59,451 nucleotides of DNA, taken from positions 1 to 59,451 of the IMG/VR virus record IMGVR_UViG_3300031281_000002; one strand, written 5' to 3'. A program made the translations under genes and the position numbers. The notes below the pieces were generated by a model. The model was not told the origin of the DNA. It made no database searches and saw only the letters and a list, made by a program, of their open reading frames with translations. The stretch is from a virus. Its lineage: Duplodnaviria; Caudoviricetes. Positions 1,611 to 40,510 of this stretch are shown here, one piece after another. How positions within the stretch are numbered: position 1 is the stretch's first letter; every line of letters begins with the position of its first letter.

Positions 1611-4400
1611 ATGTTCGTCGTCGGTGAAGTTGTTGCACCAATCAATGCAGATACAAGGCCTTTTCAACGTGGAATAGCTTCAGCACGAGGAATGGGCTCT
1701 AGTTTTATAAGAGACATTGGTGGCAATATAGAATCATTTGGGAAAAGTATAACTAATCTAGGAGGTCAATTAACAAAAGCAATAACAGTTCCCCTGGCTG
1801 CTGCTGCTATAGGCATTTTTAAGTTTGGCAAAGATTTTGAAACTGAAATGTCAAAAGTGATTGGGTTAGTTGGAGTTTCAAGAGAACAGGTTGAAGAATG
1901 GTCAGATGACATCCTACAACTTGCTCCTACTGTTGGTAAAATGCCTCACGAACTAGCAGACGCAATGTTTTTTGTAACTAGTGCAGGATTAAGAGGAGCA
2001 GCTGCACTAGATGTATTGACCATGTCAGCAAAAGCAAGTGCTGCAGGACTTGGAGAAACTAAAACGATAGCAGACTTGGTTACAAGTGCTATGAATGCAT
2101 ATGGCCAAGAAAATTTATCAGCTGCAAAAGCTACTGATATTATAACTGCTGCTGTTAGAGAAGGAAAGGCAGAAGCTTCTGAATTGGCCGCAACTATGGG
2201 AGCAGTTTTGCCTTTAGCTTCTGAAATGGGTGTAACATTTGACCAGGTTGCCGCTACTCAAGCATCAATGACAAGAACTGGGACAGATGCAGCGGAAGCA
2301 GCTACCCAATTAAAAGGAATATTGGCAGGATTAATAAAACCTAGCAAACAAGCTGAAGAGCAATTAAGAGCAATGGGAACTAGCTCTTCAGAAATGAGGA
2401 AGAAAATTAAGGAAGAAGGTTTGCTTCAAGCTCTTATGGACTTAAGAGAAATGACAAATAAATATGGAGAAGAAGCAATGGCAAGAGTATTTCCTAACAT
2501 TCGGGCATTAATGGGTGTATTGGATTTAATGGGAGGAAATCTTGAGTCAAACAAAGAAACATTCGACAAAGTAACAAATTCAGTTGGAATCCTAGACGAG
2601 GCGTTTAAAGCTGCAAGTGAAACAACTGACTTTAAGTTTAATCAGGCATTGGCACAACTACAAGCAACTGCTATTAAATTTTTTGATGTATTAAAAGCTT
2701 TTTTAGTTCCTATTTTAGAAAAATTTGTAGATGTGCTCGGATTCGTTGGTGATAAATTTGCAGGAATGCCAATGGAACAACAAAAATTAATAGTTGGTTT
2801 TCTTGCTATTGCTGCTGTTGTTGGCCCTGCGATTATGGTAATTGGTACTATAATTGGAACTTTAGGTGCTTTGATTACTGGTATAGGAACAATAGCTGGC
2901 GTTATAGGTTCAATTGGATTAGTTATTCCTGCTGTGATAGCAGGAATAACATTATTGGTTGGTGGATTAGCAGCATTAATGCTGTCAAGTGATGATGTAA
3001 GAAAAGGTTTATCAAATGCATTTAAAAATATTCAAAAATCAATTGGTGGAGCTATTGGTTTTATTAAAACACATATAGATGATATTATAAAAGCTTTTAA
3101 AGGTTTATTTGAAGGAATAGCTACAGGAAACTTTGGCGATTTTATGTCGGCAATGAGTAAACTTGTTCCTCCTGAAATAATGGAAAAAATACATAAAATT
3201 GTTAAGCTATTTGTTAAATTTCAAGATATAATTTTTGCAGTAAGAGATTCAATTATTGACTTTGCTAAAAATATTATTAAATCATTTGGTCCCGTTATAG
3301 ATACATTTAAAGAAACTATATCTAATTTAGATTTCGGAGCTATATTAGGGGGTTTTGACAATTTATTTAACAGTATCCAACCATTAATACCACTTTTTGA
3401 GTTTTTTGCTGGTGTTATAAAAGGTGTTTTTTATGTAGCAATCGGAATTATAGTTGGAGCATTTAATGCTCTTATTTCAATACTACCTAATGTGTATGGA
3501 TTAATTTTAAATTTATATAGTGTAGTTGCGAGTGTTTTTAGTTTAATAGTTGGTATTGTTTCTGGAGATAGCGAAATGATTAAAGAATCTCTGTCAAATT
3601 TATGGGAAAGTATTAAAGGGGTATTTGTTAATGCTATCTTAATTATATTTAATTTTGTAAAAGGTTTTGTTGACGGTATAATTTCATGGTTTCAAGGTCT
3701 TTATGATACATTAGTTGGACATTCTATTATTCCAGATATGATCAATTCTATAATTAAATGGTTTGCTGGATTACCTGGTAAAGTAATAGAAAAAATAAAA
3801 GAACTTGTAAATAATGGTATTTACCATTTTAATAATTTTAAAGATTCGGTCTTAAATAAATTTAAAATTTTAGTAAGTAGAATAAAAGATTTTGTAAATA
3901 AAATTGCAAGTGAAATAAAAACATTAATAAAAAAAGGGTTAGAAGCAGGAAAAGACTTTTTAGGTGGATTGTTTAAAACTGATTTTGTACAGGCTGGAAT
4001 AAATATAGTTAAAGGAATTATAAGAGGTATAAAAAGTATGTTTGGTGAAGTTTCTCGTGTTACTCGCCAATTAGCTGAGAATATAAGAGATTTTTTCCCA
4101 TTTTCGCCAGCAAAGGAAGGACCACTAAAAGATTTAGACAAAATTGATTTTGGAACATCAATAAAAAAATCATTACAAAAAGCATCAAGCATGATTTCTA
4201 TACCAAGTATGCAATTAGGAGCTGAAGTTTTAGCTAATATTAATCAAGGGCAAAATTCAAGTTTTGGAAATAGTTCAAACGGGAATGGATTAAGTGCGAA
4301 TTTTTATGGCGATATAAACCTTGAAGGCATACAGGACATGGAAAGCTTTTTATCAGAAATGAAAAATACAATACAAAAGCATACAGGGAGGAGATTTTAA
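1611..4400 (+). CDS. Tape measure protein (TP901-type core)
   Basis: 929 aa, Ala/Gly-rich helical; FETEMSKV...AATQLKGIL core; repeated W/F-spaced C-terminal helices. Confidence 0.92.
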   Translation: MFVVGEVVAPINADTRPFQRGIASARGMGSSFIRDIGGNIESFGKSITNLGGQLTKAITVPLAAAAIGIFKFGKDFETEMSKVIGLVGVSREQVEEWSDDILQLAPTVGKMPHELADAMFFVTSAGLRGAAALDVLTMSAKASAAGLGETKTIADLVTSAMNAYGQENLSAAKATDIITAAVREGKAEASELAATMGAVLPLASEMGVTFDQVAATQASMTRTGTDAAEAATQLKGILAGLIKPSKQAEEQLRAMGTSSSEMRKKIKEEGLLQALMDLREMTNKYGEEAMARVFPNIRALMGVLDLMGGNLESNKETFDKVTNSVGILDEAFKAASETTDFKFNQALAQLQATAIKFFDVLKAFLVPILEKFVDVLGFVGDKFAGMPMEQQKLIVGFLAIAAVVGPAIMVIGTIIGTLGALITGIGTIAGVIGSIGLVIPAVIAGITLLVGGLAALMLSSDDVRKGLSNAFKNIQKSIGGAIGFIKTHIDDIIKAFKGLFEGIATGNFGDFMSAMSKLVPPEIMEKIHKIVKLFVKFQDIIFAVRDSIIDFAKNIIKSFGPVIDTFKETISNLDFGAILGGFDNLFNSIQPLIPLFEFFAGVIKGVFYVAIGIIVGAFNALISILPNVYGLILNLYSVVASVFSLIVGIVSGDSEMIKESLSNLWESIKGVFVNAILIIFNFVKGFVDGIISWFQGLYDTLVGHSIIPDMINSIIKWFAGLPGKVIEKIKELVNNGIYHFNNFKDSVLNKFKILVSRIKDFVNKIASEIKTLIKKGLEAGKDFLGGLFKTDFVQAGINIVKGIIRGIKSMFGEVSRVTRQLAENIRDFFPFSPAKEGPLKDLDKIDFGTSIKKSLQKASSMISIPSMQLGAEVLANINQGQNSSFGNSSNGNGLSANFYGDINLEGIQDMESFLSEMKNTIQKHTGRRF

Positions 4401-32708: not shown

Positions 32709-33251
32709 ATGACTAACAATAAAAAAAATAAGCGAGGAAGAAAAAGTAAATATTATACTCATGTAGAACCGAAACTTGACTTGATTGAAGATTGGAGACA
32801 AAAAGGAGATACGGAGGAACAAATATCAAATAAATTAGGAATATCTTATAAATCATTAAATGAATATAAATTAAAATTTCCACAATTTACACAAGTACTA
32901 AGGGCGTCAAAAGAAAGATTGGCAATAAATCTCAAAAAAAGTTTATGGAAAGAAGCTTTAGGATATGAGTATGAAGAGGTAAAAAAAACAGAGGAAAAAA
33001 GTTATTTAGGCAATAAAACAAAAACTGAGAAAACTAAAAAGAAATTTAGAGGACAGCCGAATTTATTAATATTTGCCTTATGTAATTTGTTACCAGATGA
33101 ATTTAAGAGGATTGATAAAGAGATAATTAAAGAATTAGAGGATAAAATTGACGAGAAACTTGAATATAATAATGACATATTCAAAAAAGAGTTTGAAAAG
33201 TTATTTCCAAAAAAGAATATAAAAACAGATAAAGAAACTGGAAAGAAATAA
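32709..33251 (+). CDS. terS: Terminase small subunit
   Basis: GRKSKY, HTH, LWKEALGYEYEE, LIFALCN; directly before terL. Confidence 0.75.
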   Translation: MTNNKKNKRGRKSKYYTHVEPKLDLIEDWRQKGDTEEQISNKLGISYKSLNEYKLKFPQFTQVLRASKERLAINLKKSLWKEALGYEYEEVKKTEEKSYLGNKTKTEKTKKKFRGQPNLLIFALCNLLPDEFKRIDKEIIKELEDKIDEKLEYNNDIFKKEFEKLFPKKNIKTDKETGKK

Positions 33252-33270
33252 AAGGATATAGGTAGCTTTA

Positions 33271-35607
33271 ATGTCACATATAGAATTAAGAGATATTGTA
33301 ACAAATATTACAGATTGGGATCATAAACTTGGTATAGCTCCAAGAACATTTGAACAATTTTATTTTTGGATAAATGAATTTTTTGGATATTACATACCTT
33401 ATTCTAATGAAAAACCGTGTGAAGGACATTCTTATCCTTTATCTGCAATGTGGGAAGCTTATGCCGAAATAACACCGATGGCTATATGGTATGCAAATAG
33501 AGCGGGTGGGAAAACATATGATTTATCTGTTTTATCATTTATGGAATCTATATTTAAAAAAAATTGCGGGATAAATATATTAGGTGGTTCATTAGACCAG
33601 GCACAAAAAGCAATATCGTATTTAACAGAATTTTGGGATTTTCCTAATGCACCAACACATTTATTAGTTGGAAATCAAGTATCTAAAAGAGGATATAAAT
33701 TAACTAATGGGTCATGGGTAAGAGCGTTAGCGGCGAGTTCTAAATCAGTAAGAGGAAGCCATCAACCTAAATTGCGAATTGACGAATGCTTGACAGGTGA
33801 CACATTAATAAAAACAACACATGGATATAAAAAAATAATAGAAATAAATAACAAAGATATAGTATATGGATGGAACGGTGTTAAAATAAAAAAATGTATG
33901 GTACAATATAATTGTTATATGGGTGAGAGAAAAACATATAAAATTTTTTTCTCTAACGGTAAATATATAAATTGTACTGAAAACCATAAAATTTTAACAA
34001 CGAAAGGATATAGAAATTTAAATGAAATCAGAAGGTGGAAATGTAAGGGTGAATCAATCTTTGTTATCGGTGAACGTAAAAAGTTGTTTAATGTGTGGAA
34101 AAAAATTAAATTTAAAAAGAAAATATACAACAGGATATTGCCAAGAATGTTATATAAAATTAAATTCTGTACCAAAAAAATATTGTCAAGATTGCAAAAA
34201 AGAAATAACAAAAAATTCAACGATATGCAGAAGTTGCTATGCAAAAAGAAGAAAAGCAAAGAAACCAAAATGTATAGAATGTGGAAAAGAATTGAGGCAT
34301 ATTGCAAAACGTTGCAAAAAATGCTATTTAAAACACCTTTCGAAAATAGGAATGGATTCAAGAATGGCAAAGGCAAGAGCGACAGCATTGAAGAAAAATC
34401 CAACAAAAGCAGAAATACAAGCATCAGAATTATTAGAATATTTAAAAATATCATATCAATCACAAGTACCATTTGGAAGATACATAGTAGATTTTTTATG
34501 CAAAGATTTAAATTTAATAATAGAGGTACATGGAGAATATTGGCACAACAGAGAAAAGACGATAAAAATAGACGAAAGAAAGAAAATATTTTTAGAAAAA
34601 GAAGGATACAAAGTTCTGGTATTAAAAACAACATTAATGCATTTATGGTTTTCAAAAATTATGAAGTTTATGAAATAGTAAATATAAAAGATGATAAAAT
34701 AAATAAAGTTTATGATTTGAAAATTAAAGGGCTTAAATCATTTTTAGCAAATGGAATAATAGTTCACAATTGCGATGAACTTGATAAAAATATATACTTA
34801 GCGGCTTTGGGGCAGCCAAAAACAATGAATGGAATTCCAGAAAATATAATTATATCATCAACATTGCATCAACCATTTGGTTTAATGAGTGAAATAGTTG
34901 AATCAAAAGATGATATAGGAGCAAAATTATTTAAATGGTGTGTTAAAGAAGTTCAAGAACCACACGGATATTGGAAAGAAGCAGAAATAAAATTAAAAAA
35001 AAGACAGATTACAAAAGCGATGTTCGATGCTGAATATTTATGCCTCCGTCCTAAAATCGGAGATACAATATTCGATTTTGAATCTGTAGATAGGTCCTAT
35101 AGAAGAGGAATTAAAGATAAATATAATAAAAAATTATATACAGAAGCAGGAATCGATTGGGGTTATGCGGTTACAGCAATGAGTATTATACAGGACACTA
35201 AAGAAATATTTACAAATCCTATTACTAAAACTTTTGAGTATATTGAATTGACAGATAGGTGTAGAGAAATAGCTGATTTATGTATAGAATATGATATAAA
35301 GATAATTTATTGTGATAGCAATCCAAAAGACAGTAATATTACATTAAAAAAGATACTTAAAGAAAAAAGATGCCAAACAGAATTGATTACAATAGCATTT
35401 AATAAATGGAAAGATGTTGGAATAAATGTGATAAGATTATTATTAGAAAAAAATAGGCTTAATATAACTGACAAAACAGCACAGGAAAAATGTAAAAAAT
35501 ATCATTATAAGAATCCTGAACAGGGTATTATTGCGAAAGAAGATGATCATATTCCAGATAGTTTAATTGCGTGGGGTAGTTCAAGGCATCATTTATTAGG
35601 AATATAA
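33271..35607 (+). CDS. terL: Terminase large subunit containing an intein
   Basis: Walker A NRAGGKT, VRG, Walker B LRIDE split by the intein, nuclease GIDWG and DDHIPDS. Confidence 0.9.
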   Translation: MSHIELRDIVTNITDWDHKLGIAPRTFEQFYFWINEFFGYYIPYSNEKPCEGHSYPLSAMWEAYAEITPMAIWYANRAGGKTYDLSVLSFMESIFKKNCGINILGGSLDQAQKAISYLTEFWDFPNAPTHLLVGNQVSKRGYKLTNGSWVRALAASSKSVRGSHQPKLRIDECLTGDTLIKTTHGYKKIIEINNKDIVYGWNGVKIKKCMVQYNCYMGERKTYKIFFSNGKYINCTENHKILTTKGYRNLNEIRRWKCKGESIFVIGERKKLFNVWKKIKFKKKIYNRILPRMLYKIKFCTKKILSRLQKRNNKKFNDMQKLLCKKKKSKETKMYRMWKRIEAYCKTLQKMLFKTPFENRNGFKNGKGKSDSIEEKSNKSRNTSIRIIRIFKNIISITSTIWKIHSRFFMQRFKFNNRGTWRILAQQRKDDKNRRKKENIFRKRRIQSSGIKNNINAFMVFKNYEVYEIVNIKDDKINKVYDLKIKGLKSFLANGIIVHNCDELDKNIYLAALGQPKTMNGIPENIIISSTLHQPFGLMSEIVESKDDIGAKLFKWCVKEVQEPHGYWKEAEIKLKKRQITKAMFDAEYLCLRPKIGDTIFDFESVDRSYRRGIKDKYNKKLYTEAGIDWGYAVTAMSIIQDTKEIFTNPITKTFEYIELTDRCREIADLCIEYDIKIIYCDSNPKDSNITLKKILKEKRCQTELITIAFNKWKDVGINVIRLLLEKNRLNITDKTAQEKCKKYHYKNPEQGIIAKEDDHIPDSLIAWGSSRHHLLGI
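33787..34770 (+). mobile_element. Intein (328 aa) inserted at the terminase Walker B motif
   Basis: Block A CLTGDTLI, block B CTENH, blocks F/G VYDLKI...FLANGIIVHN followed by Cys+1. Confidence 0.92.
34022..34678 (+). CDS. Zinc-finger plus Vsr/DUF559-like endonuclease, overprinted in the +1 frame inside the intein
   Basis: CxxC repeats; PTKAE...QVPFGRYIVDF...IIEVHGEYWH...D..K...L...GYKVL. Confidence 0.8.
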   Translation: MKSEGGNVRVNQSLLSVNVKSCLMCGKKLNLKRKYTTGYCQECYIKLNSVPKKYCQDCKKEITKNSTICRSCYAKRRKAKKPKCIECGKELRHIAKRCKKCYLKHLSKIGMDSRMAKARATALKKNPTKAEIQASELLEYLKISYQSQVPFGRYIVDFLCKDLNLIIEVHGEYWHNREKTIKIDERKKIFLEKEGYKVLVLKTTLMHLWFSKIMKFMK

Positions 35608-35619
35608 TTTGGAGGTTTT

Positions 35620-36306
35620 ATGACTAATACTGAAATTATAAGTAAACATTCAAATATAAATTTGAATGTAGATAAATCAAAAATTAAAAATACTATTTGC
35701 AAAATATGTGGAAAAGAAAAAGAATCAATAAAAGAAAAGGAGATCATATCTTCTAATTTTACAAATTATGATTTATGTAAATGTAAAGAAAGTTTATTTA
35801 TATGTGTTGATTGTGCGAAATGTATAAAAGATATTGAGCTAAGAAGAAATAATTTTATTGCTGATAAAAATAATTTATATTTATTCAAAAAGAATGATAT
35901 AGAAAAATATATTTTTAATATTGATAGATATATTAAAAATGATTTTGTTGCTGGAGTTACATATACATTTAAAAAACATAATTCATTTAAATGTAATGTT
36001 AATTCTGATTATAATAAATTTTATATACAGCAAGAGGATGATAAAATATTTTTTGATGTCAAAAAAGCTAAAAAAATATATGATATCTTAAATGATGCCT
36101 ATTTATATTTTACAAAGGATGAATTATTAACTGGTGAATATAAAGCAATTTCAGTAATGCAATATGGATTAACTTCATTTGATTTATTAGAAAATATTCT
36201 AAAAGATATTAGAAAAACAAATTTATTTAAATTTTTAATATATATATTAAATTCTGAAAAAAGAAATGAAATATTACAAGAAAGAAGGAAAGTAAATGGA
36301 AGATGA
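35620..36306 (+). CDS. csf1: Type IV CRISPR large subunit Csf1 (Cas8-like)
   Basis: CKIC...SSNFTNYD...ICVDC zinc finger, KKH motif; first gene of the RAMP operon. Confidence 0.65.
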   Translation: MTNTEIISKHSNINLNVDKSKIKNTICKICGKEKESIKEKEIISSNFTNYDLCKCKESLFICVDCAKCIKDIELRRNNFIADKNNLYLFKKNDIEKYIFNIDRYIKNDFVAGVTYTFKKHNSFKCNVNSDYNKFYIQQEDDKIFFDVKKAKKIYDILNDAYLYFTKDELLTGEYKAISVMQYGLTSFDLLENILKDIRKTNLFKFLIYILNSEKRNEILQERRKVNGR

Positions 36307-36676
36307 AAAAATAAAAGATTTAGCAATTATATCATTGGTTGCTGTTTGGGATAAAATTGACTGGGATAAAATAAAACTTGAAAGAGCGTATAAAATATGG
36401 GATGAATTTTCAAACAAAGTAAGAGCATCAGCATTTACTACAAATAAATTTAATATATTCATAAATAAATTATGTAAAAAACTTGATATAGCTGCATTAT
36501 CAGACAGATGCCTTAATGAAATTATCGAAATGGATGATGATATAAAATATAAAATACTTGATTTGATTAGAAATGATTTACATTCAGTAATTTTAGCTAT
36601 GAGACTAAATATTGAGATTAGAAAACAAGAACGTGAAATAAGAAAAAATAAAGAAAGTGAAGTGAATACCATATGA
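36296..36676 (+). CDS. Cas11-like small subunit
   Basis: 126 aa, predicted all-helical; sits between csf1 and csf2. Confidence 0.55.
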   Translation: MEDEKIKDLAIISLVAVWDKIDWDKIKLERAYKIWDEFSNKVRASAFTTNKFNIFINKLCKKLDIAALSDRCLNEIIEMDDDIKYKILDLIRNDLHSVILAMRLNIEIRKQEREIRKNKESEVNTI

Positions 36677-37518
36677 AAATTGATTTAGAATTAAAATTAA
36701 AAAGTCCATTATGCCATTTCGGAGATGAAAGAATGGGAACTATGCAAGTTTTAAGAACTATGAAATTTTTATATGGAGATAAATATATTGATGTACCTGT
36801 ATATTCTGGAAATGCCATGAGAGGTATATTAAGAAGATATGCAATGAAACATTATATAGATATGTTAGAATTGCCTGATGGAATTTCAACAAAATTATTT
36901 TATATGTTATTTTCTGGTGGTGCAATTACATCAGGGTCAAGATATGAAAAAATAGAAGAAAAAAGAGAAATGAGAAAAAAGTGTCCACCACTTGCATTGT
37001 TTGGGACAGCAATTGGAGACCAGATAACAGAAGGTAAATTAAAATGTGGAATATTAAAACCAATATGCAAAGAATTAAATGATTATAATAATACCAAAAG
37101 CGATATATCTATATATGATATGCTTGAAGATATTTTTTATACAAGAAGAGATGATTTGAAAAGTCAAAGCAAAATAAAAGTAAAAAACAAAGAAATAAAA
37201 GTAAAAAAAGATGGGAAAGAAGATAAAAAGAAAGAAAATCCAGTTCAAATGAAATACGAAATTCAAGCTATATCAACAGGAAGTATTTTGGAAGGTAGAA
37301 TTATTATAGAGAATGAAAACGAAATTGAAAAAGCGTGTTTATTTTCTACATTAAATCAGTTAGATAAAATTCCATATATCGGCGGGAAATCAGCGACAGG
37401 ACACGGAGAAATCGAGCTAAATTATAGCAGAGAAGGATTTGATATCTATAATGAATATATTAAAAACAATAAAAATGATATTCTAGAATGGCTAATTAAA
37501 ACAGAAGGAATTTTATAA
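36673..37518 (+). CDS. csf2: Type IV CRISPR backbone RAMP Csf2 (Cas7)
   Basis: LKSPLCH, VPVYSGNAMRGILRR, LFSGG, LALFG, G-rich loop IGGKSATGHG. Confidence 0.85.
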   Translation: MKIDLELKLKSPLCHFGDERMGTMQVLRTMKFLYGDKYIDVPVYSGNAMRGILRRYAMKHYIDMLELPDGISTKLFYMLFSGGAITSGSRYEKIEEKREMRKKCPPLALFGTAIGDQITEGKLKCGILKPICKELNDYNNTKSDISIYDMLEDIFYTRRDDLKSQSKIKVKNKEIKVKKDGKEDKKKENPVQMKYEIQAISTGSILEGRIIIENENEIEKACLFSTLNQLDKIPYIGGKSATGHGEIELNYSREGFDIYNEYIKNNKNDILEWLIKTEGIL

Positions 37519-37519
37519 A

Positions 37520-38248
37520 ATGAATTTTGTTGAAAGAAAAATAAATAATTTTTATAGAATAATTGATAAAGCAATGAATAAATATAAAAAACATTATATT
37601 AGTTGCAGTTGGGGTAAGGATTCAATTTTAGTAGTACATTTGATAATATCAAGATATCCAGACACAACAATAATTTTTATGAATTCTGGATATGCTTTAT
37701 CAGATATATATAAATTTAGGGATTATTATTTGAAAGAATATAGAGTAAAAAATTATATAGAATTAAAATGTCCTCATGATTATGTTGAATTAAATTTAAA
37801 ATATGGGTTACCTTCGATTGACAGAAGTATTTCAGATCATGAAAAAGTTAAAAATATAATAAAAAAAGATGTAATTGATGAATGGGCAATAAAAAATAAT
37901 TATGATTGTTGTTTTTGGGGAATAAGAGCAGATGAAACAGCAGGTAGAAAAAAATTATTAAGAAAATATGGATTGTTATATAGAACTTCTGAAATAGCAA
38001 AATGTTCACCTATTGGATGGTGGGGAAATAATGATGTATGGAATATTATTGATTGTTTAAACATTCCATATTCTAAAATATATGATAAAGAACTTAAACC
38101 ATTTTTTACAAGAGATACAATAAAAAATGGTGGATATTTAACAACAGATAAAGCTAATAAAGGTAGGATAATTTGGTTAAAAAAATTTTATCCTACTGAT
38201 TATGAAAAATTATTTTCGAAATTTATTGAGGTAAAAAAATATGTTTGA
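37520..38248 (+). CDS. CysH-like (PAPS reductase family) protein of the type IV-B module
   Basis: SCSWGKDS, GIRADE..GR, SPIGWW; lacks the CC/CxxC Fe-S motifs. Confidence 0.8.
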   Translation: MNFVERKINNFYRIIDKAMNKYKKHYISCSWGKDSILVVHLIISRYPDTTIIFMNSGYALSDIYKFRDYYLKEYRVKNYIELKCPHDYVELNLKYGLPSIDRSISDHEKVKNIIKKDVIDEWAIKNNYDCCFWGIRADETAGRKKLLRKYGLLYRTSEIAKCSPIGWWGNNDVWNIIDCLNIPYSKIYDKELKPFFTRDTIKNGGYLTTDKANKGRIIWLKKFYPTDYEKLFSKFIEVKKYV

Positions 38249-38930
38249 AAATTGTAAAATAACGTTTAGAATGAGCACTCCAATTGCAATTATGGGGTAT
38301 ATATTTTTAGATGCTTTAATATCGGCAGCATGTGCAAAGGAAATGCTTGGTGACGATTATTATAATGGGTTAATGAATCAAAAAGATTTAAATGGTGGGC
38401 ATGAATTTAATACTGATGATTTACCAATATATTTTAATAAGACATTAAATATTTATCATGCAAGTACTGGATTTGGTGATAATTTAGAATCTGTATGCAG
38501 TTGGTCGAAGAGATGGGATAATAAAAATGATAATATTGTAAAATTTAAAGGAAATACAAAAGGTAGAGTTGATATTGGTGCTGGATATTATAAAAATTAT
38601 CATATGCCAATTATAATTAAATCATATAAAAATATATATTTTTATGCAAATTGTGAAATCAAAAAAGTTGAATATCTTTTAAATAAATATATACATTTTA
38701 TTGGAAAAAAACCATCACAAGGCTATGGAGAAATAAAAGAAATAATTGTTAAGAAAATGAATAACGATTATAGCATATGGGATAAATCAAATAATAATAA
38801 ACATATATTAAGACGACCAATTATGGTTTCATCACAAAAGAATAAATTATCAAATAGGATAGAAAAAATATCTGTACGGCCACCATATTGGAGAACTGAT
38901 TATTTGGAATATTGTTATATGCCAGAATAA
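38241..38930 (+). CDS. csf3: Type IV CRISPR RAMP Csf3 (Cas5-like)
   Basis: TPIA...FLDALI, HAS, IGKKPSQGYGEI G-loop, RRP, RPPYW. Confidence 0.8.
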   Translation: MFENCKITFRMSTPIAIMGYIFLDALISAACAKEMLGDDYYNGLMNQKDLNGGHEFNTDDLPIYFNKTLNIYHASTGFGDNLESVCSWSKRWDNKNDNIVKFKGNTKGRVDIGAGYYKNYHMPIIIKSYKNIYFYANCEIKKVEYLLNKYIHFIGKKPSQGYGEIKEIIVKKMNNDYSIWDKSNNNKHILRRPIMVSSQKNKLSNRIEKISVRPPYWRTDYLEYCYMPE

Positions 38931-39016
38931 ATAAAATTTTAAAAAAGGGATGGATGAAATAGTTAAAATATTAGCATGTTTAGTTGATGATATATACAAT
39001 AAATAAAAAATAGGAG

Positions 39017-40510
39017 TTGAATAAAATGTTTTTAAGCCAAGGTTCATCATTTCCGCCAAGCGGATTTGGATATTGGTATACAAAATATGACGAGTGGGAA
39101 ACTTGGTATAGTGGTGACCCTGAAAATTTATTGAAATTTTATACTATACTAGCCTTAGGTAATGCTACTGCTCAGGAAAAATTCTGGGCAAGGATGGAAG
39201 AAGAAGACAGAGCAGGTATTATCCATATTCCGGTTGCTGGTGATATTGCAATGACTTCAGCTAATTTATTATTCTCTGAATCACCACGATTTAAATATGA
39301 TGATAAGGCAAAGTCAGGAGAAAGAATCAAAACTTTTTTAGATATAAATGGATTTGAAAATATATTATTAGAAGGTGCCGAACTATCAGCTGCATTATCT
39401 GGCTGTGTATTAAAATTAGATATAGAGCCAAAATTAGAAAAAATTCCTATTGTTTCAATTTTAACACCTAAACAATTTATACCTACATTCTGGCGTGGTA
39501 GATTATGGGAAATATTAATGTTTAGAGTTGTAAAGACAACAGATGCGGGAGCAATATATAGATTGTTTGAAAACAGAAAGAGAGAAAATAATGCATTAAT
39601 TATTGAATACAAGCTACATAAGGGAACTGTTGATAAAGTTGGTAAAGAAATTGGATTTGATGAAATAGAAGAGACTGAAAATTTAAATTTAGAGCCAATT
39701 AGGCATAACAATATAGATGGACTTGGATGTGTCTATATTCCAAATATGAGGCCAAATAAATTAATGCCAGGTTCATATCTGGGAATCAATGATTTTTCAT
39801 CGAGTATAACAATGCTTGATTCGCTTGACTTTGCATGGACTAGCTGGATGAGGGATATCGAACTAGGATTAGCACAATTATTAATTGATGAAGAAATACT
39901 CGAGAAACAAAAAAGCACAACAGGTGGAACTGTTCAATTCTTAAATAAATTCAATAAGTTCAGAAAAGCATTTATAAAATTGAATCTTTCATCCTGGAGA
40001 ATGGGAGGAGAAGGTGGAATAAAACCTATAGAACAGGTCCAGTTTAATATTAGAGTTGATGAACATGCAAAAACATGTGAACAACTATTTTATCAAATTG
40101 TAAATCAATGCGGTTATTCTCCACAAACATTTGGATTAGGAATAGAAGGAAGAGCAGAAAGCGGAACGGCATTGAAACTTAGAGAAGGAAAAAGTCAGGG
40201 TACAAGAAATAAAAAAACGAGATATTGGATTCCAGCTGTAAAACAATTATTATTGCAAATGCAAAGGTTAGATAAGGAATCAGGATTAAATAGTTCGTAT
40301 GATGAGCAAAGTGTATCAATTGAGATTGAGGATTCAATTGCGACAGATGAAAAAGAAGTTTCTGAAACAATCAGAAATCTTGATCAAGCAAGGGCAATAT
40401 CTAATTATACAAAAGTAAAATTACAGCATCAGGATTGGTCAGAAGATGATATTATGGCAGAGGTAAAAAGAATAAATGATGAACAGGGGATTACGGGGGA
40501 AATATTATGA
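39017..40510 (+). CDS. Portal protein (SPP1/A118-like)
   Basis: 497 aa; SANLLFSE, YIPN, LDSLD..W.SWMRD, GYSPQTFG, ESGTAL. Confidence 0.85.
   Translation: MNKMFLSQGSSFPPSGFGYWYTKYDEWETWYSGDPENLLKFYTILALGNATAQEKFWARMEEEDRAGIIHIPVAGDIAMTSANLLFSESPRFKYDDKAKSGERIKTFLDINGFENILLEGAELSAALSGCVLKLDIEPKLEKIPIVSILTPKQFIPTFWRGRLWEILMFRVVKTTDAGAIYRLFENRKRENNALIIEYKLHKGTVDKVGKEIGFDEIEETENLNLEPIRHNNIDGLGCVYIPNMRPNKLMPGSYLGINDFSSSITMLDSLDFAWTSWMRDIELGLAQLLIDEEILEKQKSTTGGTVQFLNKFNKFRKAFIKLNLSSWRMGGEGGIKPIEQVQFNIRVDEHAKTCEQLFYQIVNQCGYSPQTFGLGIEGRAESGTALKLREGKSQGTRNKKTRYWIPAVKQLLLQMQRLDKESGLNSSYDEQSVSIEIEDSIATDEKEVSETIRNLDQARAISNYTKVKLQHQDWSEDDIMAEVKRINDEQGITGEIL

Follow-up and report, generated by a model that had tools for sequence, protein, structure and literature searches.

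An intein in a phage terminase-like gene with a predicted zinc-ribbon EDxHD/Vsr-like nuclease in an overlapping +1 reading frame

Inteins whose nuclease is encoded outside the reading frame of the intein itself have already been described from different sources. In actinophages, the nucleases reported from such inteins are antisense LAGLIDADG, antisense Vsr-like and frame-3 EndoVII-like ones, and the invasion of an intein by a free-standing nuclease gene is proposed as their origin (Gosselin, Arsenault and Gogarten, bioRxiv 10.1101/2025.01.02.630785); a cyanobacterial dnaX intein is described with a LAGLIDADG nuclease in the +2 frame (Phillips, DeSimone and Gogarten, bioRxiv 10.64898/2026.09.14.751524). 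Related arrangements are the "fractured genes", in which free Vsr-like nuclease genes lie between the halves of split inteins, including that of a terminase (Dassa et al., 2009; PMC2677866), and "ShiLan", an out-of-frame HNH nuclease in an insertion of a phage methylase (Arsenault et al., 2025; PMC11855218). The prototype of the EDxHD homing endonucleases is I-Bth0305I, characterised by Taylor et al. (2011; PMC3239194; PDB 3r3p). Here we analyse a locus of the virus record IMGVR_UViG_3300031281_000002 (Duplodnaviria; Caudoviricetes), a complete record with direct terminal repeats whose 59,451 bases are called the window below, in which an intein interrupts the Walker B motif of a terminase-large-subunit-like gene and the central part of the intein DNA carries, one base further on the same strand, an open reading frame (ORF) for a zinc-ribbon EDxHD/Vsr-like nuclease. 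Both frames are open and, as set out below, both are under selection.

The intein, read in frame 0, is recognised by the Pfam model Intein_splicing (42.4 bits, cut-off 35.8) and by the NCBIfam models intein_Nterm (32.4, cut-off 24.5) and intein_Cterm (19.9, cut-off 15.6). Its catalytic set is complete, with CLTGDT, TENH and the terminal IVHN followed by Cys as the +1 nucleophile, and residues C1, T64, H67, D310, H327 and N328 are invariant across 11 aligned sequences. Removal of the intein in silico leaves a protein of 450 aa with the junction KLRIDE-CDELD. An earlier note, made from the letters of this DNA, had placed a 328-aa intein with these motifs at Walker B, and both the family matches and the length of the joined exteins bear this out; it had also described the centre of the intein frame as rich in Lys and Arg and free of stops, which corresponds to the 192-aa linker between the two splicing lobes, with 32% K+R and no frame-0 stop. 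This stretch is missing from the 138-aa mini-intein that a relative (P0007) carries at the identical site. The three forward frames of 33787-34770 differ sharply, since frame 0 has no stop, frame +2 has 49, and frame +1 has 11 before 34022, 8 from 34676 on and none between.

The protein encoded in this open part of frame +1, of 218 aa, matches Pfam DUF559 over residues 116-201 with an E-value of 8.9e-13 (48.5 bits, cut-off 20.6), and the Pfam models DZR_2, DZR and Vsr score slightly under their cut-offs. When a profile of 19 homologues (alignment A3) was compared with the PDB, it met I-Bth0305I (3r3p) at E 2.9e-15 and Vsr (1cw0) at E 7.1e-5. In the same alignment D157, E168, H175 and D184 are invariant, D157 and H175 falling on D196A and H213A, the residues mutated in the crystal construct 3r3p, and the Cys columns of the zinc ribbons vary little or not at all; down to about 30% identity, the residues of the catalytic set and the Cys remain invariant. 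The zinc-finger and Vsr/DUF559-like nuclease that the earlier note had read in this frame is thus confirmed. The N-terminal NUMOD/helix-turn-helix (HTH) region of the EDxHD prototype was not found in the 218-aa protein, which has six CxxC pairs in its place; that region is a trait of the prototype and not of the catalytic family. Relatives of the nuclease are numerous (2658 at E<=1e-3 in a scan of 1.84 billion representative proteins), and among the best 150 of them, with lengths of 82-425 aa, no in-frame fusion to an intein was found.

The conserved core of the nuclease fits almost exactly between the splicing lobes. The first zinc-ribbon Cys lies at 34085 and the N-terminal lobe ends at about 34074, and the last invariant nuclease residue, W209, ends at 34648, immediately before the start of the C-terminal lobe at 34651; the 3' end of the nuclease ORF overlaps the intein's C-terminal part by about 27 nt.

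Two long open frames over the same DNA could in principle be due to base composition, and the earlier note had considered them improbable because the DNA is AT-rich. On its own this argument is weak, since the strand is A-rich and T-poor (A 48%, T 25%); the improbability itself is upheld by a test that composition does not affect, based on codon junctions. A stop in frame 0 arises only where a nuclease codon ending in T precedes a codon starting with AA, AG or GA. In the nuclease ORF, T precedes none of the 80 stop-prone codons and 44 of the 137 others, and in the other genes of the window the same junction occurs in 1716 of 4464 cases (38.4%). Synonymous resampling with the codon usage of the phage gave a mean of 22.0 stops in the intein frame, with a minimum of 9, and shuffling of the ORF's own codons gave a mean of 9.4; a stop-free sequence appeared in 0 of 20,000 trials with either procedure. 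The same avoidance is found in all eight viral loci with a nested nuclease (listed below), where T-junctions number 0 of 45-105 each and stop-free shuffles 0 or 1 of 5000. The double openness is more than chance.

Frame-specific substitution rates, which the earlier note had proposed as a check, point in the same direction. An independent viral contig (L001) carries the same 778-aa and 218-aa ORFs, and the Nei-Gojobori estimate of dN/dS over the overlap is, for this one close pair, 0.124 in the nuclease frame, as under purifying selection, and 1.56 in the intein frame, where constraint on the amino acids is relaxed; outside the overlap frame 0 gives 0.054-0.198. The phase of the substitutions switches accordingly: mismatches between the two contigs fall on third positions of frame 0 in the exteins (46/58 and 79/115) and on third positions of the nuclease frame in the overlap (44/70). 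The translated linker is 74% identical and the nuclease 89%. None of the 38 synonymous differences in nuclease codons made a frame-0 stop, as 38 of the 365 possible single changes of this kind would have done. Because of the junction statistics, the frame-specific dN/dS, the switch in substitution phase and the constant +1 phase in relatives, we conclude that both frames are under selection, the nuclease frame for its protein and the intein frame for openness, as the earlier note had supposed. The two properties that mark inteins with out-of-frame nucleases, namely a nested ORF between the lobes within an open intein frame and constraint specific to one frame, are therefore both found at this locus.

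The complementary strand also contains an open frame, at 33915-34655 (246 aa, rich in Leu, Phe and Ile), which was considered as a coding sequence and rejected. The number of antisense stops matches expectation (Markov chain Monte Carlo, MCMC, P = 0.67), and the openness of the minus strand is a by-product, because the nuclease codons together with an open frame 0 already predict the number of stops; antisense openness was as expected in 7 of 8 loci, with a nominal value of 0.005 in L029.

An assembly artefact, in which two compensating indels mask an ordinary nuclease domain read in frame with the intein, is practically negligible as an explanation. The relevant comparison was made on contigs: those of a second salt-marsh run cover 33600-34276 and 34368-34900 with 0 differences and 0 gaps, and one from marine sediment, belonging to a third study, shows 161 substitutions over the full length of the stretch, again with 0 gaps. 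The identical +1 phase recurs in independent assemblies of distant relatives, indels would close frame 0, yet frame 0 is open, and the avoidance of frame-0 stops would be left unexplained. Compensating indels, a doubt raised in the earlier note, are in this way excluded by gap-free independent assemblies and by the conserved phase.

The arrangement is not confined to the window. Among 80 viral loci encoding relatives of the nuclease, the ORF is nested in a longer one (560-1163 aa) in eight and not nested in 72; antisense frames of 61-182 aa that do no more than span a short match, those of L054, L055, L058, L085 and L089, were not taken as nested. The eight nested loci (L026, identical to L012, and L027, L028, L029, L030, L031, L049 and L051) represent six distinct sequences, and in all eight the nuclease is in +1 relative to the host frame. 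Outside the window the arrangement and its phase are found in L001, L012, L027, L028, L029, L030/31 and L049/51; L003 repeats the L001 sequence (4999/5000 bases) and was not counted as independent. With the window, the nested lineages number eight distinct ones; they span a GC content of 27-62%, and the +1 ORF is intact in all of them. The intein occupies the Walker-B site of divergent terminases in L012, L027 and L029, a position three residues upstream of it in L028, another terminase site with Walker B intact in L030/31, and a Mu-type portal protein in L049/51; the insertion sites covered are two to three in the terminase and one in the portal. Three further frame-0 proteins (P0004-P0006) have a homologous linker in which RFFMQRF and WRILAR correspond to IVDF and EYWHD of the +1 frame, and to judge from these correspondences they may carry a nuclease in that frame as well.

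Comparison of L028 (1321-2379) with L012 (2508-3503) shows inteins three codons apart within one and the same Walker-B segment, RLR|CDE versus RLRCDE|CDE, with the Cys of a CDE triplet as the +1 nucleophile for both. Among genome contigs, 1 of 15 loci is nested, its element being identical with that of L049. A contig (L108) of a metagenome-assembled genome (MAG) labelled Patescibacteria group bacterium shares its portal-intein-nuclease element with the viral contig L049; it is probably a contig of a phage binned with the MAG, or a prophage.

These data bear on the idea that the +1 ORF is a decaying, untranslated relic, open only through a recent invasion or through the frameshift of a domain that was once in frame. 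The existence of mini-inteins at the same site implies that the nuclease can be lost, as such a decay would require; an ORF that remains intact over this range of base composition, with a dN/dS of 0.124 and with catalytic and Cys residues kept in remote homologues, is not what it predicts, and this already disfavoured explanation appears to us very improbable.

The distribution of the intein itself would suit a mobile element. Of seven related terminase ORFs (L004-L010), six (L005-L010) lack it and read LRLDE-VDEMD or LLIDE-ADELD across the insertion point; together with the mini-intein of P0007, this means that intein-plus, mini-intein and intein-less alleles coexist among relatives. In the intein-less L005 and L007 the terminase open frame has a long N-terminal extension (692 and 741 aa open), which gives the impression of a fusion between a small-subunit-like region and the large subunit. 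The earlier note had suggested that a nuclease gene invaded a mini-intein, and P0007 fits this proposal, although it does not give the direction of the event. One intein-plus relative, L004 (the L001 contig), is mosaic. Its resemblance to the window extends through the intein and into the C-extein for about 330 nt; beyond that point it is 88-98% like L006, which has no intein, and keeps 94% identity to L006 over the next 2 kb. It looks recombinant, in a manner that would fit homing with co-conversion without proving it.

It may be asked whether the nuclease, functional as it appears, takes part in intein mobility at all. It could be a selfish or competition nuclease of the free-standing type with another target, for which a dispensable linker merely offers a place to settle without harm, and most members of the family, at 72 of 80 viral and 14 of 15 genome loci, are indeed free-standing genes found in varied contexts. 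However, in a quick tree of the nuclease domain the TerL-nested nucleases cluster, 7 of the 8 nested rows forming one group with an SH-aLRT of 91 (not starred; the eighth, L049, has a long branch and no resolved place); the nested nucleases travel with inteins at several sites, the three types of allele coexist in close relatives, and the related I-Bth0305I is described as cutting beside its own insertion site (PMC3239194). A nuclease without a role in mobility is for these reasons unlikely.

The host gene (Table 1) was assigned from its setting. The gene order TerS-TerL-portal, combined with Walker A (RAGGKT, 33499-33516) and Walker B (KLRIDE), is that of a terminase, and the protein-atlas neighbours of the ORF according to a language model, a lead only, belong to Terminase_6N/6C clusters. 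Neither the exteins nor an intein-less homologue matched a terminase in Pfam, PHROGs or the PDB profile search, NCBIfam termin_lrg_T7 gave only 17.1 bits (cut-off 150), a search of the annotated phage collection with the whole 778-aa precursor gave no match, and a search of genome contigs with the C-extein gave none either. On gene order, motifs and the language-model lead, the ORF at 33271-35607 is therefore called a putative terminase large subunit. An SPP1-type portal gene lies directly 3' of the terminase in the relative L001 and at 39026-40510 in the window. The interval of about 3.4 kb between terminase and portal in the window (35620-39025) holds five ORFs, one with a PAPS-reductase domain (37520-38248, E 5.5e-18) and another with a sub-threshold RAMP-like match, and looks like an inserted module because the two genes adjoin directly in L001.

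Table 1. Positions in the window of the host gene, the intein and the nested nuclease ORF
Feature	Positions	Strand	Basis
Nested ORF, 218 aa, zinc-ribbon and EDxHD/Vsr-like (DUF559) nuclease	34022..34678	+ (+1 frame)	
C22 to C101, six CxxC pairs read as three zinc ribbons, presumed DNA-binding part	34085..34324	+	
Nuclease domain, residues 116-201, with D157, E168, H175, D184	34367..34624	+	Pfam DUF559 span
AAAGGA, possible Shine-Dalgarno, 13 nt before ATG 34022	34003..34008	+	Inference only
Class-1 intein, 328 aa, 984 nt, frame 0	33787..34770	+	Pfam and NCBIfam matches above cut-offs
N-terminal splicing lobe with CLTGDT as block A and TENH (33976-33987) as block B	33787..34074	+	Alignment with mini-intein P0007 and other relatives
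Frame-0 linker, 192 aa, K+R 32%, pI 11.4, stop-free, amino acids not conserved	34075..34650	+	
C-terminal splicing lobe (FKNYEVYEI...VYDL...IVHN)	34651..34770	+	Alignment; NCBIfam intein_Cterm on residues 307-328
Terminase-large-subunit-like precursor ORF, 778 aa, frame 0 read-through	33271..35607	+	Gene order, Walker motifs
N-extein, 172 aa, C-terminus = Walker B KLRIDE (33769-33786)	33271..33786	+	
C-extein, 278 aa plus stop, N-terminus = CDELD	34771..35607	+	
Terminase small subunit (context)	32709..33251	+	phrog_309 "terminase small subunit", E 2.4e-29

As regards the expression of the nuclease, the phage uses Shine-Dalgarno (SD) sites, and candidate signals for internal initiation are present at the 5' end of the nested ORF. 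A possible SD precedes ATG 34022 (Table 1), with a spacing similar to that of the same motif (AAAGGATATAG) at the terminase gene's own start, and GAAGGTGG at 34031-34038 lies 10 nt before the in-frame GTG 34049. In four of the nested relatives (L012, L027, L030 and L049) GGAGG, GGAG or AAGGA is found at -10 to -13 of the first nuclease-frame start, and that of L012 is GGAGG at -11. Promoter-like sites are not enriched (14 versus 16.6 +/- 3.8 in shuffles). The alternative is a +1 ribosomal frameshift, programmed near the start of the overlap, by which the nuclease would be made not as a separate protein but fused to the N-extein and the N-terminal lobe of the intein. The invariable +1 position of the ORF relative to the host frame, its overlap with the end of the N-lobe by at least 17 codons, the A-run (GTAAAAAGT) immediately before the first zinc-ribbon Cys and the weakness of the SD at ATG 34022 would all suit this mechanism. 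A common descent, however, accounts equally well for the constant phase, the four relatives just named place a start codon and an SD-like motif before the zinc ribbons, and neither a recognised slippery site nor a stimulator was found for the nuclease, Rfam being without a match over 33000-35800, a result that also leaves nothing pointing to an intron. Frameshifting is accordingly given little credence, and, of the two routes put forward in the earlier note, the SD-like motifs before the starts and the lack of a frameshift signal or Rfam match make internal initiation appear more likely.

The explanation that we consider probable overall is a composite selfish element, formed by an intein and an out-of-frame nuclease, residing in the terminase gene. 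Ribosomes translating the terminase would keep frame 0 and pass straight through the intein, giving a product in which the two splicing lobes are joined by the linker, whose sole requirement would be the lack of a stop. The intein would then excise and join ...KLRIDE to CDELD..., restoring Walker B, as its intact catalytic residues suggest. The same DNA, read one base later, would yield a protein of its own, 218 aa long, in which three zinc ribbons that bind DNA are combined with an EDxHD/Vsr-like nuclease; its translation would most likely start internally on the terminase mRNA, at ATG 34022 or GTG 34049. The targets of this nuclease would be the intein-less terminase alleles of co-infecting relatives, cut near the Walker-B codons, and repair would copy in the intein together with the nuclease gene, that is homing, as the family to which the enzyme belongs and the pattern of presence and absence lead us to expect.

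Several points weigh against this composite element and should be considered together. The +1 product, the splicing and the cleavage are predictions from the sequence; the SD of ATG 34022 is weak, 13 nt off and within codons that are conserved for the intein (TTKGY); the dN/dS values come from a single close pair, and overlapping frames confound the ratio; the identity of the terminase depends on gene order, Walker motifs and a language-model lead, without a Pfam, PHROG or PDB match; and the L004 mosaic could reflect ordinary phage recombination rather than homing.

A broader proposal, which we put forward only tentatively and hold to be rather less probable than not, is that the intein and the +1 zinc-ribbon/EDxHD nuclease are one old two-frame mobile module. 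The module would have a single origin, would have kept its phase across 27-62% GC and would have moved as a unit between at least three places, two of them in the terminase (Walker B and a second site) and one in another head gene, that of the Mu-type portal, with about 190 intein-frame codons selected only for being stop-free; terminase ribosomes crossing the nuclease start may, in addition, throttle nuclease synthesis and so act as a dosage control.

Two loci met among the relatives show other topologies of intein and nuclease. L095 (42-5483) has the fractured-gene form, with a PHP-domain polymerase ORF that contains the N-part of an intein, then a free-standing Vsr-like nuclease (2123-3019), then an ORF that starts with the C-part of the intein (...VHN then Cys) and overlaps the 3' end of the nuclease. 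In the cultured Vibrio phage Va1 (L106, MK387337.2; 1122-4539) a T4-like terminase is divided into two ORFs, the first made up of the N-extein and a short N-terminal piece of intein, with the same nuclease family in a split or fused topology.

Compared with the systems described so far, the novelty of the locus is narrower than the earlier note implied when it set an out-of-frame nuclease against the in-frame domains that are normal in inteins: out-of-frame and antisense cases are already in print, and what was not found in the literature searched is a Vsr-like/EDxHD (DUF559) nuclease in the sense +1 arrangement within an intein, which supplementary tables might nevertheless list. The actinophage inteins, as described (10.1101/2025.01.02.630785), are the closest in layout, being contiguous, often located in the terminase large subunit, and provided with a nuclease between the splicing blocks in another frame; their nucleases include a Vsr-like one that HHpred links to 3R3P. 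In that account the Vsr-like nucleases are antisense and the same-strand case is EndoVII-like in frame 3, whereas here the nuclease is Vsr-like/EDxHD, in the sense-strand +1 frame and with three zinc ribbons; furthermore, the carriers are uncultured phages of non-actinobacterial type with a GC content of 27-62%. The dnaX intein (10.64898/2026.09.14.751524) is reported with a same-strand overlapping ORF and, over the overlap, with a low omega for the nuclease frame as against values above 1 for that of the intein, and its authors propose a secondary invasion of a mini-intein, mini-intein and intein-free alleles coexisting as they do here; unlike our case, it is a +2 LAGLIDADG nuclease in another host gene, cellular and not viral. 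With I-Bth0305I (PMC3239194) the nuclease shares the catalytic domain (profile E 2.9e-15), with the conserved D and H and further acidic residues, but the described enzyme belongs to a group I intron and has an N-terminal NUMOD/helix-turn-helix region instead of three zinc ribbons. The "ShiLan" insertion (PMC11855218) likewise hides a nuclease in a frame other than that of the host gene, in which the insertion is read through, but, according to its description, it has no splicing domain, stays in the host protein and encodes an enzyme of the HNH family.

The locus thus adds a third nuclease family to the same-strand out-of-frame architecture of inteins, and the literature searched holds no earlier sense-strand case from the Vsr-like/EDxHD family. 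Such an architecture is no oddity of actinophages or cyanobacteria, as it is spread, with its phase conserved, through uncultured phages of very different base composition, and, as an example of a long reading frame under selection for openness alone, it is unusually clean. Elements of this kind are probably under-counted, since gene callers report only one of the two ORFs, and the predicted zinc-ribbon EDxHD nuclease may be of interest as a modular site-specific enzyme. The fractured genes (PMC2677866) involve the same Vsr-like family of predicted homing enzymes, the same intein site and phage terminases among their hosts, and their nuclease genes are reported to overlap the downstream intein part by 6-69 bp, to be compared with about 27 nt here. 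In those genes, as described, a stop followed by a restart divides the intein, and with it the host gene, into two ORFs; across 33787-34770 no stop after the N-terminal part and no restart before the C-terminal part was found, and the gene is contiguous in frame 0. The locus is therefore a contiguous counterpart of the fractured-gene arrangement, and as such supports the view that free-standing nucleases colonise mini-inteins.

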